In this document: positions 2,039 to 27,679 of the stretch, in pieces
How positions within the stretch are numbered: position 1 is the stretch's first letter
How the letters are laid out: each line of letters begins with the position of its first letter
From: Candidatus Zixiibacteriota bacterium
Lineage (GTDB): Bacteria > Zixibacteria > MSB-5A5 > JAABVY01
Length of the DNA: 64,000 nucleotides
Direction of reading: 5' to 3'
Assembly (NCBI GenBank): GCA_011056555.1
Contig: DSEQ01000032.1
Span: forward strand, 1,257 to 65,256
Made by a program: the position numbers and the translations under genes
The notes under the pieces: generated by a model
What the model was told of the DNA's origin: nothing
The model's input: the letters and a program-made list of their open reading frames with translations, nothing else
Database searches by the model: none

Positions 2039-2400
2039 TGGAGGTGGGGGGAATCGAACCCCCGTCCGAAAGCGACGCAACCAAGCCATCTACGTGCGTA
2101 GCCATTATGTTATTTTCTCGATCAACCCAGGACATAACGGCGAACCGCAGATTGACCCAGCCTGATTAGTCTTTTCTCCGTCGGGTCAGGCGGTCCCTAA
2201 GGAGAGCACCTTCCTAATCGACGCTGACATCCGGTCCCGAAAGGTAAAAACCGGAGCAACGGGCACCTAATCTAAGTTAGGCAGCCATGGCAAAGTTGTT
2301 TTCGCCATTTATTTTAGTTTTCCGACTTTTTTACGAGATCGTCGGAGACCTCGGCACGCAGGCCTAATCCCGCTCACTCCGTCGAAACCGGGTCACCCCC
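2039..2400 (-). ncRNA. ssrA: tmRNA (SsrA)
   Basis: The reverse strand starts GGGGGTGACCCGGTTTCGACGG and ends GGGGGTTCGATTCCCCCCACCTCCA. This gives a tRNA-Ala-like acceptor stem with a G3:U70 wobble plus a T-arm. The internal tag frame GGC GAA AAC AAC TTT GCC ATG GCT GCC TAA encodes GENNFAMAA*. CCA is not encoded. Confidence 0.9.
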
Positions 2401-5364: not shown

Positions 5365-5492
5365 TTTTGAAAGGCCTTCTATTTATGGGGGGAAACAACT
5401 TTCAGTTATCAGGAATCCTGATAACATCTCTTCGAATTAGTTTAACAGAGTGACTCTCAAACAACTTATATGCATATTTGGGGGATATCTTT

Positions 5493-6437
5493 ATGCCTGA
5501 TAGAATCTATTTCATTCTTTCTGCGGTCTTGATCACATTAATTAGCCTGATGGTGGCTGATCTACATGCTGATCATATCTGCGGCGATACCAATAGCGAC
5601 AGCGCGCTTAATATCAGCGATGCGGTCTGGGTGATGAATTATGTTTTTACCTCCGGCGCTCCGCCCGATCCGACAGGCGTAGGCGATTGTAACTGCGATG
5701 CCGCCTGCAACATAAGCGACGCTATCGTGATCATAAACTATGTTTTCACAGACGGATACCTGCCCTGCGATCCCGATGAAGATGGCAGTCCGGATTGCGA
5801 CCCGGATTGTCCCCTGATAATGGATGTAGATGGGAATCTATATCAGACAATTCTAATTGGTGAGCAGTGCTGGATGGCTGAGAATTTGAAAGTGACTCAC
5901 TACCGTAATGGCGATCCCTTACCGAATGTGACCGATGCAGGTGCATGGAATGGGCTCACATCGGGGGCTTACTGCGACTACAATAATGACGATGGACAGG
6001 TTGAGGTTTATGGAAGGCTATATAACTGGTATGCCCTGATTGACAGCCGCAATATCGCGCCGGAAGGCTGGCACCTGCCGACTGATGCCGAGTGGAAGCA
6101 ATTGGAAATGTTTCTTGGTATGAGCCAGGCTGATGCCGATGCCACCGGATGGAGAGGCACCGACGAAGGCGGAAAGCTTAAAGAGGCCGGCATGGTGCAT
6201 TGGAATTCTCCCAACACCGGTGCCACAAATGAGAGCGGCTTTACCGCCCTGCCCGGCGGCTATCGGGTCAACACTGGCGCCTTTCTCAATATGGGAACCT
6301 ACGCCTACTTGTGGTCTTCCACCGAAAGCGGCGCCTATACGGTATGGGGTCGTCTCCTCAGTTCCGGTGTCGCAACCATTTACCGCTATGCCGATTCCAA
6401 AGCGGCGGGATTTTCGGTTCGCTGTATCAGGGATTGA
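5493..6437 (+). CDS. secreted dockerin-like + single FISUMP-domain protein (paralog 1)
   Basis: Signal/TM segment followed by two EF-hand-like dockerin repeats (GDTNSDSALNISDAVWVMNYVF and GDCNCDAACNISDAIVIINYVF). Next comes a Cys/Asp-rich linker and then a Fibrobacter succinogenes major paralogous domain (DGNLYQTILIGEQCWMAENLKVTHYRNGD...YGRLYNWYA...GWHLPTDAEWKQLE...GFSVRCIRD). I prefer the ATG at 5493 over the track start at 5478. Confidence 0.8.
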   Translation: MPDRIYFILSAVLITLISLMVADLHADHICGDTNSDSALNISDAVWVMNYVFTSGAPPDPTGVGDCNCDAACNISDAIVIINYVFTDGYLPCDPDEDGSPDCDPDCPLIMDVDGNLYQTILIGEQCWMAENLKVTHYRNGDPLPNVTDAGAWNGLTSGAYCDYNNDDGQVEVYGRLYNWYALIDSRNIAPEGWHLPTDAEWKQLEMFLGMSQADADATGWRGTDEGGKLKEAGMVHWNSPNTGATNESGFTALPGGYRVNTGAFLNMGTYAYLWSSTESGAYTVWGRLLSSGVATIYRYADSKAAGFSVRCIRD

Positions 6438-6695: not shown

Positions 6696-8123
6696 ATGAA
6701 AAAAAATTTTTATTTGTTTGCGCTCGCGATAATTATCGCATTTATGGGCATAACCACAACTGAGTCAGGGGCTTATTATATCTGCGGTGATGCCAATAGC
6801 GATGGGGGTGTGAATGTCAGTGACGCAGTCCACATCGTAAATTATGTTTTCGTGGGCGGAGATGCGCCTGATCCGGTAGCAACCGGCGATTGTAACTGCG
6901 ACGGCAGCTGCAACGTTAGTGATGCGGTGGCTGTTATAAACTTCGTTTTTGTCGGGGGGTATGACCCCTGCGATCCTGACAATGACGGCATTCCGGAATG
7001 CGATCCAAACAGCCCGATGATTATAATCGATCCTTCACCTGACCTGCTCGACGCACCCTGGTCACTTGCGGGCCCCGAAGGTTTCAGCGCCGGCGGTAAT
7101 GGCGATGATACCCTTATCAGCCTCGAAGTCGGCGAGTACACGATCACCTGGGGTGAGGTGTTCGGCTGGTTGACTCCGCCGGATTCTACACATACCCTGA
7201 CCTCGGAGGACACGGTAACGTTCAGTGGTATCTATATTGAAGCGGGCCCGGGCACAATCGTAATCGACCCTTCACCTGACTCCCTCAATGCTACCTGGTC
7301 ATTGCTGGGTCCTGAGGGATATCTGGCCGATGGTAACGGGGATGACACACTGCCTGATCTTGATCCGGGTGATTACACGATAACCTGGGGATATATATTT
7401 GAGTGGATAAAACCGTCTGATTCAACACTGACCTTGCCCCCGGAAGATACCATGACTTTCATTGGGACTTACATCGAGGCAATCGATTCCACCGGCACCG
7501 TAACCGATTTTGATGGTAATATTTATCAGACCATCAAAATCGGCGATAAATGGTGGATGATGGAGAATCTGAAGGTGACGCATTACAGAAATGGTGATGA
7601 GATTCCGAACATAACCAGCAATTCCACATGGGAAAATCTTATAAGCGGAGCTTATTGCAATTATGATAATGATGAAGGTAATGTCAACACCTATGGGCGA
7701 TTGTATAACTGGCATGCTGTAAATGACAGCCGTGGTATATCCCCGCAGGGCTGGCATGTGCCGACCGATGAAGAGTGGAAAGAACTGGAGATGTATCTTG
7801 GGATGAGCAGGACCGATGTCGATGCCAGCGGCTGGCGCGGTACCAATGAGGGCGGCATGTTAAAAGATACAGGCACAACGTACTGGACCAGTCCAAACGG
7901 AGGCGCCACCAATGAAAGCGGTTTTACCGCCTTGCCCGGAGCTTATCGCAACTATGATGGGAGTTTCAATAATTTGGGAAGTGTTGCCAGTTTTTGGACA
8001 GCCACGGAATACTCCAGTGAGCGTTCATGGACCCGGCGTCTGCATTACCAATTCTCACAATGCGCTCGCCTGAACTACGGCAAAACCTACGGCTCATCGA
8101 TTCGCTGTGTGAAAGATTATTAG
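6696..8123 (+). CDS. secreted dockerin-like + 2 Ig-like spacer repeats + FISUMP-domain protein (paralog 2)
   Basis: Signal peptide, a dockerin-like repeat pair and two ~90-aa repeats (IDPSPD.L.A.WSL.GPEG....GNGDDTL..L..G.YTITWG). The C-terminal FISUMP domain contains FDGNIYQTIKIGDKWWMMENLKVTHYRNGD...GWHVPTDEEWKELE...SIRCVKDY. Confidence 0.8.
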   Translation: MKKNFYLFALAIIIAFMGITTTESGAYYICGDANSDGGVNVSDAVHIVNYVFVGGDAPDPVATGDCNCDGSCNVSDAVAVINFVFVGGYDPCDPDNDGIPECDPNSPMIIIDPSPDLLDAPWSLAGPEGFSAGGNGDDTLISLEVGEYTITWGEVFGWLTPPDSTHTLTSEDTVTFSGIYIEAGPGTIVIDPSPDSLNATWSLLGPEGYLADGNGDDTLPDLDPGDYTITWGYIFEWIKPSDSTLTLPPEDTMTFIGTYIEAIDSTGTVTDFDGNIYQTIKIGDKWWMMENLKVTHYRNGDEIPNITSNSTWENLISGAYCNYDNDEGNVNTYGRLYNWHAVNDSRGISPQGWHVPTDEEWKELEMYLGMSRTDVDASGWRGTNEGGMLKDTGTTYWTSPNGGATNESGFTALPGAYRNYDGSFNNLGSVASFWTATEYSSERSWTRRLHYQFSQCARLNYGKTYGSSIRCVKDY

Positions 8124-23455: not shown

Positions 23456-23530
23456 TTATCCTCCTGGGAGATTAATTTGTTTCACTTTCACAATATGTCA
23501 TAAAGGGACAATTTGTTCCAAATTAAAATA

Positions 23531-23615
<85 letters not shown>

Positions 23616-23725: not shown

Positions 23726-23875
23726 GTAGGGCATGATCCCTGTGATCATGCCTGTCTTTATGGGTGCCGCCGACAAACTTGTTTGTCGGCGATGGCAGGT
23801 TCGCAGGGAACCTGCCCTACTATCCTTTCGGCGTGAGAGATTTTGTAGGTCAAATCTCACAGACTTTTGACCTAC
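23726..23875. repeat. intergenic cluster of four consecutive perfect hairpins, including GTAGGTCAAA family copy 2
   Basis: Four hairpins are present. (1) GGCATGATC-CCTGT-GATCATGCC. (2) GCCGACAA-ACTTGT-TTGTCGGC, preceded by TGGGTGCCGCC. (3) GGCAGGTT-CGCAGGG-AACCTGCC. (4) GTAGGTCAAA-TCTCACAGACT-TTTGACCTAC at 23845-23875. Confidence 0.7.
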
Positions 23876-23923
23876 GCTTTCCCATTTTTTCAAGCAAACT
23901 GCCGCAAGTTATCAAATAGTCAA

Positions 23924-26900
23924 CTAGTCTTTGACACAACGAACAGAAAAACCGTTCCGCTTATAATTGCCGTAACGGTGGGTCTGGGAATAGTCGTAAT
24001 CCAGGCCACGGTACCATGCGTAGTCACTGCCGCCCTCTGTAGACGACCAATAGTGAGCGTAGATACCCAGACCGTTGAAGGCGCCATCGATGGAACTGTA
24101 TCCGCCAGGCAGCGCGGTAAAACCACTTTCATTGGTTGCGCCAGTGTTAGGACTCTGCCAGTGCGTTGTGCCTGTTTGCTTTAACTTGCCTCCTTCATCG
24201 GTACCTCGCCAGCCAATAGCATCAGCCTCTGCCTGACTCATGCCAAGATACATCTCCAATTGCTTCAGCTCCGCATCGCTGGGAACATGCCAGCCTTCGG
24301 GTGAGATATTTCTACTGTCATTTACGGCATACCAATTATACAATCTCCCATAAATAGCAACATTGGCCGGATCATTATTATAGTCGCAATAGGCCCCGGT
24401 GGAAAGTCCTGACCAGGTGCCGCCGTCTGTCACATTCGGAATAGAGTCGCCATTGCGATAATGAGTGACCTTCAAATTTTCACACATCCACCATTGATCG
24501 CCGATTTTTATGGTTTGATATACATTACCGTCGTAGTCGGTAACAGTTCCGGTTGAATCGGGAGCCTCCATGTAATTTCCATCGAAATTTGCTGTATCGC
24601 CCCAGCTTATTGTGTATCGAAGATTTGCAGGTTTTATCCAGTCCGGGACAATTCCCCAGGTGATCGTATAATCTCCGATTTCAAGATTGGTCAAGGTATC
24701 GTCCCCATTTCCGCTTGAAGTATAACCGTCAGGTCCTGAAATCGACCATGGTGCATTGATTGAATCCGGTATTGAATTTATAAATATCGTGCCAGGTGTG
24801 TCTTTAATACAGCGTATGGATAATCCGGCTTCCTTCGTATACATGAGTGCGCATCCGCGACCGATTTGCGACATCCCGCAATGCAGGAATCTAAACAACC
24901 CATGGTCAATATCGCATTCGGAGAAAGACCAGAAGCGGGCCATCTCATGCAAAAAAGTGTATTCTCCCGTGTCAAGCCTGTAACCTCCCGGGAGTGCTGT
25001 GAAAGCAAATTCATTGGTGGCACCTGTATTGGGATCGAGCCAGTGCGTTGTGCCGATTTGCTTTAACTTGCCTCCTTCATCGGTACCACGCCAGCCGGAA
25101 GAATCAGTCGATTCCTGGCTCATGCCCAGAAACATCTCAAGCTGTTTCCACTCGGCATCAGTGGGCACATGCCAGCCATCAGGGGCGACATTGCGGCCGT
25201 CATTTACAGCATGCCAGTTATATAGTCTGCCATAGACAGGTACATGGTCCGTATCGTTGTTATAGCTGCAATATGCTCCCGTTGTTAGATTTTCCCAGTC
25301 TATATCATCGGTCACATTTGGTATGGAATCGCCATTGTGATAATGCGTGACCTTCAGATTCTCACACATCCACCATTGATCGCCGATTTTGATTGTTTGA
25401 TATACATTGCCGTCATAGTCGGAAACCGTTCCGGTTGAGTCGGGAGCTTCCATGTAATTTCCATCAATATTTATCGTTTCGCCCCACGTTATTGTGTATC
25501 GAAGATTTGCAGGTCTTATCCAGTCGGGGACAATTCCCCAGGAGATCGTATAATCTCCGATTTCAAGATTGGTCAATGTGTCGTCTCCGTTTCCGCTTGA
25601 AGTATAACCGTCAGGTCCTGTGATTGACCATGGTGCATTAATGGAATCCGGTATTGAATTTATAAATATCGTGCCGGGTGTATTTTGGATGCAGCGTATT
25701 GAATAACCATACCTACAATGGATGCTGTTGCGGCGAACTTGAGCATATTGATAATATAGCTGTCGATACCATGCGCTATAATCACCCGCAATTGTGGACG
25801 ACCAAAAAGCTGCATACCAGCCCCAAGCATGGAGGAAGCTTCCATTGTCATGACGATACACCCCGGGTAAAGCTGTAAAGCCACTTTCGTTGGTCGCTCC
25901 AGAGTTAGGGTTATCCCAATATACTGTTCCGGTGTCCTTCAATTTGCCGCCTTCATTAGTGCCGCGCCAATCTAATCCATCGGCTTCTGCCTGGGGCATT
26001 CCAAGAAACATCTCCAATTGTTTCCATTCAGCATCGGTAGGCACATGCCATCCTTCCGGCGCAATACTGCGGCTGTCATCTACGGCAAACCAATTATATA
26101 GCCTTCCAAAAACGGGAACGTTTTCTTCATTATTGTCGTAGTTGCAATAGGCTCCGGTTGATAGATTCACCCAGGTGGCACTGTCTGGAATATGGGATAT
26201 AGGATCACCGTTGCGATAGTGAGTGGCCTTCAGGTTTTCAGCCATCCACCATTGATCGCCGATTTTGATGGTTTGATAGACATTACCATCAAAATCGGAT
26301 ACTGTTCCGGTCGAATCTGGCGCTTCGGAATATGTACCTGCAAAAATCATGGTATGATTTGGCACGAAATTACGAGTTGAGCCGCAGGGCCGCAGCCATC
26401 CGAACACGGGTTCCCATGTTAGTATATATTCGCCGGCTTCAAGGTTAGATAACGTATCATCACCATTTCCACTTGCGGTATATCCATTTGGGCCTGAGAG
26501 TGACCATGGGGCGTTGATAAAATCAGGCGAAGGGTTGACTGCGATCCTGCCTGGGCTGTCTTTCACGCATCGAACAGATAGTCCGAAAATTTCAAAGACA
26601 TCCTCGCGTTGAATCTGTGAGTAGGAGTAAGCAAGTGCACGTATAATAATTTCACCACTAAAGTCCACCGTAGAGCACCAAAATGCGATAACATTATAAA
26701 TATCGTGGAATTGACTGAATTCGCCCCGGTAGCCTGCAGGAAGAGCGGTAAAACCACTTGAGTTAGTGGCTCCTTCATTGGGGCTTGCCCAATGATCAGT
26801 TCCGGCTTCTTTCAACTTGCCGCCTTCATCCGTGCCGCGCCAGTCCCATGAATCCGCCTGTGCCTGATCCATGCCGAGATACATTTCCAGTTGTTTCCAT

Positions 26901-27502
26901 TCACCATCAGTCGGCACATGCCATCCTTCCGGTGCCAACTTGCGGCTGTCATCTACTGCATACCAGTTGTATAATCTGCCATACGTTTCGACATGATCTT
27001 CATTATTGTCGAAGTTGCAGTAGGCACCGGATGTCAAATCCTGCCAGGTCGCGCTGTCGGGCGCATGGGATACGGGGTCGCCATTGCGGTAATGGGTAAC
27101 CTTTAGATTTTCCATCATCCAGCATTGATCACCGATCAAAACTGTCTGATAGACATTTCCATCGTAATCGGTTATTGTGGATGGACAGTTGGGATCGCAG
27201 TCTGGAAAACCGTCGCCATTGACGTCGCACGGATCATTTCCTTCTATAAATACATAATTGATTATCCACACCGCGTCACTGATATTTACTGATCCGTCGC
27301 AATTTACCTCACCAGATAAGAAGGGGTCAGGCTCAGGTCCACCAATAAATACATAATTAACAATCCAGACTGCATCACTGACATTAACAGAGGCATCATT
27401 GTTCGCATCTCCGCAAATATCTTGAGCCGGCAAATTTTTAGTGCTTAATCCAATAAAGACGATTATTGTGGCAAGGGCGAGGAGATGAAAATTGATCCGC
27501 AT
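23924..27502 (-). CDS. secreted 1,192-aa protein: dockerin-like repeat pair + four FISUMP domains separated by three Ig-like spacers
   Basis: I prefer the ATG at 27502 after GGGAGGAGGGATATC. It gives the signal peptide MRINFHLLALATIIVFIGLS. The dockerin-like repeats are GDANNDASVNVSDAVWIVNYVF and VNCDGSVNISDAVWIINYVF. The FISUMP consensus (DGNVYQT..IGDQ.WM.ENLK.THY.NGD / YGRLYNW.AV.D.R / GWHVPTD.EWKQLE / S.RC.KD) occurs four times. Confidence 0.85.
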   Translation of the reverse strand: MRINFHLLALATIIVFIGLSTKNLPAQDICGDANNDASVNVSDAVWIVNYVFIGGPEPDPFLSGEVNCDGSVNISDAVWIINYVFIEGNDPCDVNGDGFPDCDPNCPSTITDYDGNVYQTVLIGDQCWMMENLKVTHYRNGDPVSHAPDSATWQDLTSGAYCNFDNNEDHVETYGRLYNWYAVDDSRKLAPEGWHVPTDGEWKQLEMYLGMDQAQADSWDWRGTDEGGKLKEAGTDHWASPNEGATNSSGFTALPAGYRGEFSQFHDIYNVIAFWCSTVDFSGEIIIRALAYSYSQIQREDVFEIFGLSVRCVKDSPGRIAVNPSPDFINAPWSLSGPNGYTASGNGDDTLSNLEAGEYILTWEPVFGWLRPCGSTRNFVPNHTMIFAGTYSEAPDSTGTVSDFDGNVYQTIKIGDQWWMAENLKATHYRNGDPISHIPDSATWVNLSTGAYCNYDNNEENVPVFGRLYNWFAVDDSRSIAPEGWHVPTDAEWKQLEMFLGMPQAEADGLDWRGTNEGGKLKDTGTVYWDNPNSGATNESGFTALPGVYRHDNGSFLHAWGWYAAFWSSTIAGDYSAWYRQLYYQYAQVRRNSIHCRYGYSIRCIQNTPGTIFINSIPDSINAPWSITGPDGYTSSGNGDDTLTNLEIGDYTISWGIVPDWIRPANLRYTITWGETINIDGNYMEAPDSTGTVSDYDGNVYQTIKIGDQWWMCENLKVTHYHNGDSIPNVTDDIDWENLTTGAYCSYNNDTDHVPVYGRLYNWHAVNDGRNVAPDGWHVPTDAEWKQLEMFLGMSQESTDSSGWRGTDEGGKLKQIGTTHWLDPNTGATNEFAFTALPGGYRLDTGEYTFLHEMARFWSFSECDIDHGLFRFLHCGMSQIGRGCALMYTKEAGLSIRCIKDTPGTIFINSIPDSINAPWSISGPDGYTSSGNGDDTLTNLEIGDYTITWGIVPDWIKPANLRYTISWGDTANFDGNYMEAPDSTGTVTDYDGNVYQTIKIGDQWWMCENLKVTHYRNGDSIPNVTDGGTWSGLSTGAYCDYNNDPANVAIYGRLYNWYAVNDSRNISPEGWHVPSDAELKQLEMYLGMSQAEADAIGWRGTDEGGKLKQTGTTHWQSPNTGATNESGFTALPGGYSSIDGAFNGLGIYAHYWSSTEGGSDYAWYRGLDYDYSQTHRYGNYKRNGFSVRCVKD
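24425..24799. repeat. tandem duplication unit, copy A (spacer plus start of FISUMP module 4)
   Basis: By eye, about 115 of 125 encoded residues are identical to copy B, with high nucleotide similarity. It is offset exactly 882 bp (294 codons) from copy B. Confidence 0.8.
25307..25681. repeat. tandem duplication unit, copy B (spacer plus start of FISUMP module 3)
   Basis: Encodes TPGTIFINSIPDSINAPWSITGPDGYTSSGNGDDTLTNLEIGDYTISWGIVPDWIRPANLRYTITWG...DGNVYQTIKIGDQWWMCENLKVTHYHNGDSIPNVTD, which is nearly identical to copy A. Confidence 0.8.
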
Positions 27503-27679
27503 GATGATATCCCTCCTCCCGGGATAAAAATTAGATTGTAGATTCAGAAGGGTGCGCCCCATTTGGCTGCAGATTACAAAGGTGTTTTAAGAAACTAAAA
27601 ACCCCTCGTGGAGGTAAAGTCAAAATATCTAATGATTAGAAGCATGACCCTCCCAATAATTTGTGAAGTTCTCAAAAAT

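Follow-up and report, generated by a model that had tools for sequence, protein, structure and literature searches.

The stretch analysed here (the window; 64,000 nt of contig DSEQ01000032.1, assembly GCA_011056555.1, from a Candidatus Zixiibacteriota bacterium, and part of a 185-kb contig, JGI Ga0212127_10000006) carries three genes, A, B and C, for proteins with FISUMP domains (Fibrobacter succinogenes major paralogous domain, PF09603/TIGR02145). The subject of this report is the segment of ~50 residues at the C-terminal end of each domain, referred to as the cassette and compared below with the variable regions (VRs) of diversity-generating retroelements (DGRs). A domain census of the window was performed by six-frame hmmsearch together with Pfam PF09603 and TIGR02145, and exactly six FISUMP domains were found in the three genes. 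PF09603 matched all six with E-values of 1e-50 to 5e-57 over profile positions 1-187 (3-187 in the domain of gene B), and TIGR02145 scored 127-466 bits at a cut-off of 41.65 bits. The genes and domains are the following:

23924-27562, minus strand: gene A, open reading frame (ORF) of 1212 amino acids (aa) with signal peptide, type I dockerin, four FISUMP domains and 87-residue linkers; gene callers place the start at 27502, giving 1192 aa
26558-27169, minus strand: domain A1 of gene A, VR-equivalent cassette at 26558-26746
25682-26296, minus strand: domain A2 of gene A, VR-equivalent cassette at 25682-25873
24800-25420, minus strand: domain A3 of gene A, VR-equivalent cassette at 24800-24997, with a 3-codon insertion
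23927-24538, minus strand: domain A4 of gene A, C-terminal, cassette at 23927-24115 (ALPGGYS ... GFSVRCVKD)
5478-6437, plus strand: gene B, ORF of 319 aa (called as 314 aa) with dockerin and one FISUMP domain at 5823-6434, cassette at 6246-6434
6696-8123, plus strand: gene C, 475 aa, with dockerin, two linker-type modules and one FISUMP domain at 7506-8117, cassette at 7929-8117

The six domains were aligned with MAFFT, and mean pairwise identity was calculated per column range. The scaffold (columns 1-149, residues 1-148) was 71% identical at the amino acid level and 70% at the nucleotide level, the cassette (columns 150-199) 30% and 45%, and the terminal G.S.RC.KD tail 67% at the amino acid level. 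The least conserved span of 50 columns began at column 149, and none of 10,000 column shuffles produced an equally low one (0/10,000). A conserved scaffold with a variable C-terminal cassette had been proposed in the initial annotation, with cassette coordinates that agree with the present ones within a few codons, and is confirmed; the even spread of variability along the domain that would have spoken against it was not observed, variability being concentrated in the span from column 149. Non-synonymous differences per site (pN) amounted to 0.18 in the scaffold vs 0.50 in the cassette, and synonymous differences (pS) to ~0.76 in both; since synonymous sites are saturated, dN/dS along the domain is not meaningfully computable, and the paralogous domains must be old. 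The earlier statement that the cassettes differ almost completely from copy to copy holds as to strong divergence but not as to completeness, for W164, R177, L179, R188 and G196 within the cassette are invariant in 6/6 domains, and G152, F/Y154 and the S/T165-167 run are mostly kept. Among 162 related domains the segment is likewise the most variable part (column entropy 2.6 vs 1.2 bits) and is traversed by a conserved skeleton (G152, F154, A161, W164, S/T165-167, W175, R177, L179, R188, K193, G196).

For structural comparison, domain A4 was modelled. A first model, based on a shallow alignment of 71 sequences (60-78% identical), reached a predicted local distance difference test score (pLDDT) of 69, gave meaningless Foldseek matches and was discarded. 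With a diverse alignment of 65 sequences, AlphaFold2 returned a model with pLDDT 98.1 and a predicted template-modelling (TM) score (pTM) of 0.93. The top solved structure matched by this model in Foldseek was the Legionella Lcl C-terminal/DUF1566 domain 8q4e (E 3.5e-3, probability 0.98, TM 0.31/0.46), termed C-type-lectin-like by its authors (PMC11162425), followed by the Bacteroides fimbrial protein 4eps (probability 0.75) and by ~25 C-type lectin domains with weak scores (E 1-4, probability <0.1). Phage proteins with FISUMP or DUF1566 domains matched the model strongly (TM 0.84). The match of A4 to Pfam Lcl_C was sub-threshold (25.3 vs 34.9 bits), and a profile search of PDB sequences gave no match. 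Through the model, the 8q4e match and the weak C-type lectin matches, the C-type-lectin-like fold claimed previously is supported as a prediction; the evidence is consistent with such a fold and statistically weak. In the model the cassette consists of four predicted beta-strands (160-168, 173-180, 186-192 and 196-198). Along strand 173-180 the conserved residues W175, R177, L179 and Y181 alternate with the hypervariable positions 176, 178, 180 and 182, as in a strand with one packed and one exposed face, from which we infer that the cassette is exposed at the surface.

Domains of the Fib_succ_major, DUF1566 and DUF823 families form a known class of DGR targets ('category d' with CLec2 VRs), of which Legionella LdtA is an example (PMC5758913), and Fib_succ_major targets have been described in human microbiomes (Ye 2014; PMC4159848). 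Scaffold identity was 89-97% and cassette identity ~50% in a clade of single-domain homologs of ~275 aa, where Y, S, G, D, N, F and H occupy the variable positions. One member of this clade, P0091, is the target in locus L004, where the gene order was FISUMP target, small GIY-YIG ORF, bAvd, template repeat (TR) and RVT_1 reverse transcriptase (RT). The TR of this locus (TR_L004) translates as ALPGGYRNNNGNFNNMGNNANFWSSTENNSNNAWNRNLNYNNSQVNRNNNNKQNGFSVRCVRD, and 33/34 mismatches between TR and VR fall on TR adenines. In L006, the same locus from another sample, the VR is a different one, and TR adenines account for 34/37 of its mismatches; two independent DGRs with related RTs (L021 and L022) have the same layout, with adenine mismatches of 37/39 and 34/35. 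The RT and adenine-specific template that the initial annotation proposed to search for are thus present in relatives (L004, L021 and L022) and were not detected in the window. The repeat shared by TR and VR extends from ALPGGYR to the stop codon, which are the boundaries first assigned to the cassette, and the 26 columns that vary most in the 162 related domains include 24/24 AAY codons (AAC or AAT) of TR_L004. Because the repeat boundaries and the AAY columns coincide in this way, the cassette corresponds, as judged from these alignments, to the VR, the part of its homologs that undergoes diversification by DGRs.

Domain A4 keeps all sequence hallmarks of a VR. Of the columns with AAY in TR_L004, all carry NNY codons in A4 (24/24), and at 22/24 its third base (C or T) is that of TR_L004, compared with 9-14 in the other five domains (binomial tail P ~1e-4). 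Identity to TR_L004 was 81% at non-adenine TR positions (78% in the scaffold) and 48% at adenine positions. TR_L004 aligned over its full length in the window only at A4 (24117-23921, E 2e-33), and the A4 scaffold is the nearest of the six to the DGR-target clade (87-88% identical). Gene A was also compared at the protein level with its closest ortholog, P0122, the third domain of which is 93% identical to A4 in the scaffold and 28% in the cassette; differences were found in 22/24 columns of the AAY set, in 13/39 of the remaining cassette and in 10/141 of the scaffold. Among the six domains, the codon signature of a DGR-target VR (NNY at TR AAY codons, the rest conserved) was found in A4 only. 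From these comparisons A4 is likely to be, or to have been until very recently, a remote target of a DGR located beyond the 64 kb.

The A4 stop codon is followed without a gap by the flank TTGACTATTTG, the sole match to it in the window, and the combination of TAG and TTGACTATTTG has the same position in A4 and in the L004/L006 target. All three verified DGR targets (L004/L006, L021 and L022) have tandem (R/C)CTATTTG octamers behind their stop codon, as do other VR-like FISUMP genes or domains (gene 3 of L001, L009, L010). In every FISUMP cassette that is verified or VR-like the octamers begin 0-3 nt from the end; those of L010 are in frame within an ORF of several domains. The flanks are located as follows:

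23913-23923 of the window, minus strand: flank TTGACTATTTG of A4
L004 10769-10800: octamers after a verified target
L006 10769-10810: octamers after the same target in the other sample
L021 5117-5150: octamers after a verified target
L022 4727-4750: octamers after a verified target
L001 12975-12996: octamers after gene 3
L009 ~2370-2393, minus strand: octamers after a VR-like cassette
L010 336-360 and 1662-1686: octamers after VR-like cassettes

The octamer flank was absent after the domains of genes B and C, after A1-A3, after the TRs and after cassettes unlike VRs. It marks the targets of this DGR clade, and a function is presumed from this co-occurrence: the octamers may be the target-recognition element of the clade. 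A GC-rich cruciform after the VR was considered as a further criterion and dropped, since it occurs in part of the verified targets only and is not clear after A4; a small GC hairpin follows the octamers in some loci only.

The remaining five cassettes behave differently. Scaffold and cassette identities to the respective orthologs were 97% and 74% for A1 and 88% and 38% for A2 (both to P0122), 85% and 79% for B, and 91% and 91% for C (to P0061). The B cassette is 72-81% identical in four orthologs (P0005, P0018, P0020 and P0022) whose overall identity is 64-81%. By this conservation B and C are fixed cassettes, clearly under purifying selection, and the A1 cassette appears largely fixed as well. 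The A1 cassette contains E and Q, which NNY codons cannot encode, and has 16/24 NNY codons. The A2 cassette differs from that of P0122 by indels and by W and Q residues, so that A2 diverges fast from its ortholog but without a DGR-like pattern. In A3, for which no ortholog was found, K/E/Q/M/W occupy 7/26 hypervariable positions and 16/24 codons are NNY. The description of the cassettes as hypervariable is accordingly correct between paralogs and not uniformly over time, given the conservation of B and C, and largely of A1, in orthologs. The B cassette has K/E/Q/M/W at 0/26 positions and NNY codons at 22/24, with third-base matches to the TR at only 14/24; the C cassette has NNY codons at 21/24. 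This VR-like composition of B and C would fit descent from diversified VRs, and for the five cassettes together we give about even chances to their being fossil VRs, descended from formerly diversified ones. At non-adenine TR positions they are 57-68% identical to TR_L004, their own scaffolds 71-75%.

Several further observations were made in the related loci. The 85-aa GIY-YIG ORF of L004 (10815-11072) lies between the DGR target gene and bAvd and is, to our knowledge, not among the standard DGR components. The TRs of L021 (5576-6049) and L022 (5599-5988) are called as coding ORFs of 157 and 129 aa with Fib_succ_major Pfam matches; calling a TR as a coding ORF is an annotation artefact that inflates the database counts of small 'FISUMP proteins'. 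At the loci of P0087, P0083 and P0064, FISUMP genes were found with no RT nearby, so some family members lie outside DGRs. P0064 (loci L013-L018), a 277-aa FISUMP protein, has a Y/S/G/D-rich, VR-like cassette; the protein does not differ among eight contigs, which come from several samples. No RT was present within 6 kb, and its stop codon is followed by a truncated flank only (TAGTTGACTTGAC). From these features it may be another frozen or remote target. Comparison of L001 (10001-12977) with L003 (420-2409), a related locus of Zixibacteria type, revealed a 264-aa FISUMP gene, between two FISUMP genes, that is present in one assembly and absent from the other, which indicates that FISUMP gene content is polymorphic in the family. 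L001 shares the ENA sample ERZ27245474 with one copy of the window's contig.

Taken as a whole, the cassettes belong to a known kind of feature, the DGR-type variable regions of FISUMP/DUF1566 lectin-like domains, and the picture in which A4 is a remote target and the other cassettes are fixed is probably right. Several results weigh against it. With three RTs and one Avd of related DGRs as tblastn queries, RT and Avd were absent from the 64 kb and from the 9.5 kb beyond its left end, as was a TR; a scan of the window for the Y/F-x-DD motif was negative, and no cassette copies besides the six were found in it. In favour of a remote target, however, DGR targets at distances of >100 kb have been documented (PMC5758913, PMC4159848). 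Pattern scans of two contig collections (genome_contigs and metagenome_contigs) for a TR matching A4 or for allelic VRs gave only the unrelated FISUMP loci L009 and L010, the window's own contig being apparently outside both collections. All available assemblies of that contig are 100% identical and give no evidence of variation within the population. About a third of the non-AAY cassette columns (13/39) differ between A4 and its ortholog, so that adenine mutagenesis from one shared TR is insufficient by itself. A4 has one perfect octamer whereas verified targets have two to four, and the A4 target site may consequently be decaying. The NNY excess in B and C could alternatively reflect a preference for Tyr, Ser, Gly, Asp and Asn at binding surfaces.

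Binding surfaces are often rich in these residues, as in antibody binding loops. Such a preference is part of the first alternative, in which the cassettes arose by ordinary divergence of paralogs through point mutation, with relaxed or positive selection on a binding surface, and no DGR ever acted in this genome. The lack of RT, Avd and TR in the window would then need no explanation; the saturated synonymous sites would be those of old paralogs, and the non-NNY codons, K/E/Q/M/W residues and indels in A1-A3, as well as the stability of B and C in orthologs, would be expected. This account fails mainly at A4, which agrees with a foreign TR at 22/24 synonymous C/T choices, a match that amino-acid preference does not explain at a tail P of ~1e-4, which carries the exact post-stop flank of verified targets and which has changed relative to its ortholog at 22/24 AAY columns and at only 10/141 scaffold columns. 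Nor does it account for the coincidence of the family's variable columns with the AAY codons of the TR, and it is considered unlikely.

Homologous recombination (gene conversion or unequal crossing-over) could instead shuffle cassettes or domains, as in antigenic variation. Part of the evidence for it comes from the linkers of gene A, located as follows:

26297-26557, minus strand: linker A1-A2
25421-25681, minus strand: linker A2-A3
24539-24799, minus strand: linker A3-A4

Linkers A2-A3 and A3-A4 are 90.7% identical in nucleotides, compared with ~70% for the flanking domains, and P0122 (901 aa) has three FISUMP domains only, the A3 unit being absent; these two findings point to gene conversion between linkers or to their unequal recombination. 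FISUMP genes also vary in number, as in L001 vs L003. The linker module of gene A is present twice in gene C, and a weak Big_3 (Ig-like) match in linker A1-A2 was the sole Pfam match among the linkers. Recombination of this kind accounts for domain number but not for the sequence content of the cassettes: no pair of cassettes in the window exceeded background (best cross-match 59% in nucleotides), and no silent donor copies were seen. As the origin of the cassettes it is judged very unlikely.

That all six cassettes are live targets of one or more DGRs elsewhere is hardly credible, although up to seven remote targets are on record for some DGRs (PMC5758913) and a VR-type architecture is present in 6/6 domains, because at non-adenine TR positions the five cassettes fall below their own scaffolds, they differ mutually at synonymous sites (so that no single TR is homogenising them), they have no 3' flank, the B and C cassettes are kept in orthologs whose overall identity is 64-91%, and A1-A3 are internal, with coding linkers following.

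Under the preferred reading, with A4 as a remote target and fixed cassettes elsewhere, the following sequence of events is proposed. The six domains would be binding modules with a C-type-lectin-like fold, secreted and tethered by a dockerin. At their N-terminus all three FISUMP proteins have a signal-peptide-like segment and a type I dockerin. The dockerins would imply a cohesin-bearing partner at the cell surface; their repeats (PF00404) are located as follows:

27251-27412, minus strand: type I dockerin repeats of gene A (E 1e-8, 35.7 bits, above the cut-off)
5583-5744: type I dockerin repeats of gene B (E 3.9e-4, 21.0 bits, just under the cut-off of 22.9 bits)
6786-6947: type I dockerin repeats of gene C (E 1.9e-7, 31.6 bits, above the cut-off)

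The cassette, from ALPGGYR to the C-terminal G-x-S-V/I-R-C, would be the counterpart of the VR rewritten by DGRs in the family. In relatives, RT, Avd and TR would act together in copying a template with ~24 AAC/AAT codons in this stretch; adenines would be randomised in copying, and the product would replace the 3' end of the FISUMP gene (mutagenic retrohoming). A4 would be served remotely by a DGR elsewhere in the genome, and the five other cassettes probably lost the 3' target flank on becoming internal or duplicated. Going by what is established for DGR variable proteins such as Mtd, TvpA and LdtA, the cassette would be the part that contacts the ligand. The cassettes may set ligand specificity, and the locus may encode a repertoire of binding specificities, as proposed in the initial annotation. 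A wider proposal is offered only tentatively and is at present rather doubtful: that the locus displays a life cycle of DGR VRs, in which A4 is served in trans, its paralogs are frozen VRs kept as fixed specificities, and the octamers are an undescribed recognition element whose loss freezes a cassette.

The surroundings of gene A are those of ordinary chromosome, as indicated by a tRNA-Leu gene (anticodon TAG; 23530-23615, minus strand) between gene A and a trigger factor-like ORF, and by a ClpP-like ORF. The ORFs beyond the tRNA gene are putatively trigger factor and ClpP, by sequence resemblance. A hairpin with a 10-bp stem is located at ~23846-23877, between the gene A stop codon and tRNA-Leu. 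Close homologs carry the name candidate division Zixibacteria in public records.

The findings local to this DNA are that one of six cassettes is still target-like, that the others are fixed and that a conserved octamer-repeat flank marks targets of this DGR clade. For the family, they explain the sharply variable segment of a very large group of proteins (thousands of FISUMP proteins in Zixibacteria, Bacteroidota, KSB1 and related groups) as the landing pad of a widespread DGR clade. VR-like cassettes far from retroelements can be sorted by sequence alone into probably live and probably fixed ones, the criteria being how well synonymous C/T choices match a TR, whether the 3' flank is there and how orthologs compare. 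If the idea of frozen VRs and of the octamer element is true, testable rules would follow on the range of lectin-like genes open to a DGR and on the way in which products of hypermutation become permanent paralogs; if the life-cycle reading is true, DGRs would seed stable multi-domain binding repertoires.

The prototype DGR target is Mtd, a tail-fibre protein of the CLec1 class (CLec, C-type lectin) from Bordetella phage BPP-1, in which a homing-initiation site (IMH) and a GC-rich cruciform lie 3' of the VR. The FISUMP targets resemble Mtd in having a predicted lectin fold with AAY-templated variable C-terminal residues and a target-specific element 3' of the VR; in place of IMH and cruciform, however, the verified FISUMP targets carry post-stop tandem (R/C)CTATTTG octamers, with a hairpin in some only. 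For A4 as a remote target there is a precedent in Treponema denticola TvpA (CLec of the formylglycine-generating enzyme (FGE)-sulfatase type, PDB 2Y3C), where one DGR serves several scattered paralogous lectin-fold genes (PMC5758913, PMC4891356). TvpA differs in its CLec subfamily (FGE-sulfatase vs FISUMP/DUF1566 here), and all remote VRs of Treponema match the TR at non-adenine positions whereas here only A4 plausibly does. The C-terminal domain of Legionella pneumophila Lcl (Lcl-CTD, 8Q4E) is the conserved trimeric head of a surface adhesin and binds glycosaminoglycans (PMC11162425). It is C-type-lectin-like, and of the solved structures it matches the A4 model best, but sequence identity is 12%, Lcl-CTD is not diversified, and the FISUMP domain is ~70 residues longer. 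Closest is the DUF1566/DUF823/Fib_succ_major class of DGR targets, including LdtA (PMC5758913, PMC4159848), which differs from the present locus in several respects: the 64-kb window is without RT, Avd and TR, and five of the six cassettes are unlike VRs; the domains stand in tandem behind a dockerin here, compared with a single lipoprotein C-terminus in that class; and the host is of Zixibacteria type instead of gut Bacteroides or Legionella. Shared with this class are the Pfam family, the predicted lectin-like fold, the position of the VR at the C-terminal end of the domain and the skeleton W...R.L...R...G.S.RC between the variable positions; relatives possess the canonical RT, Avd and TR with adenine-specific mismatches, and A4 has the VR codon pattern together with the 3' flank.

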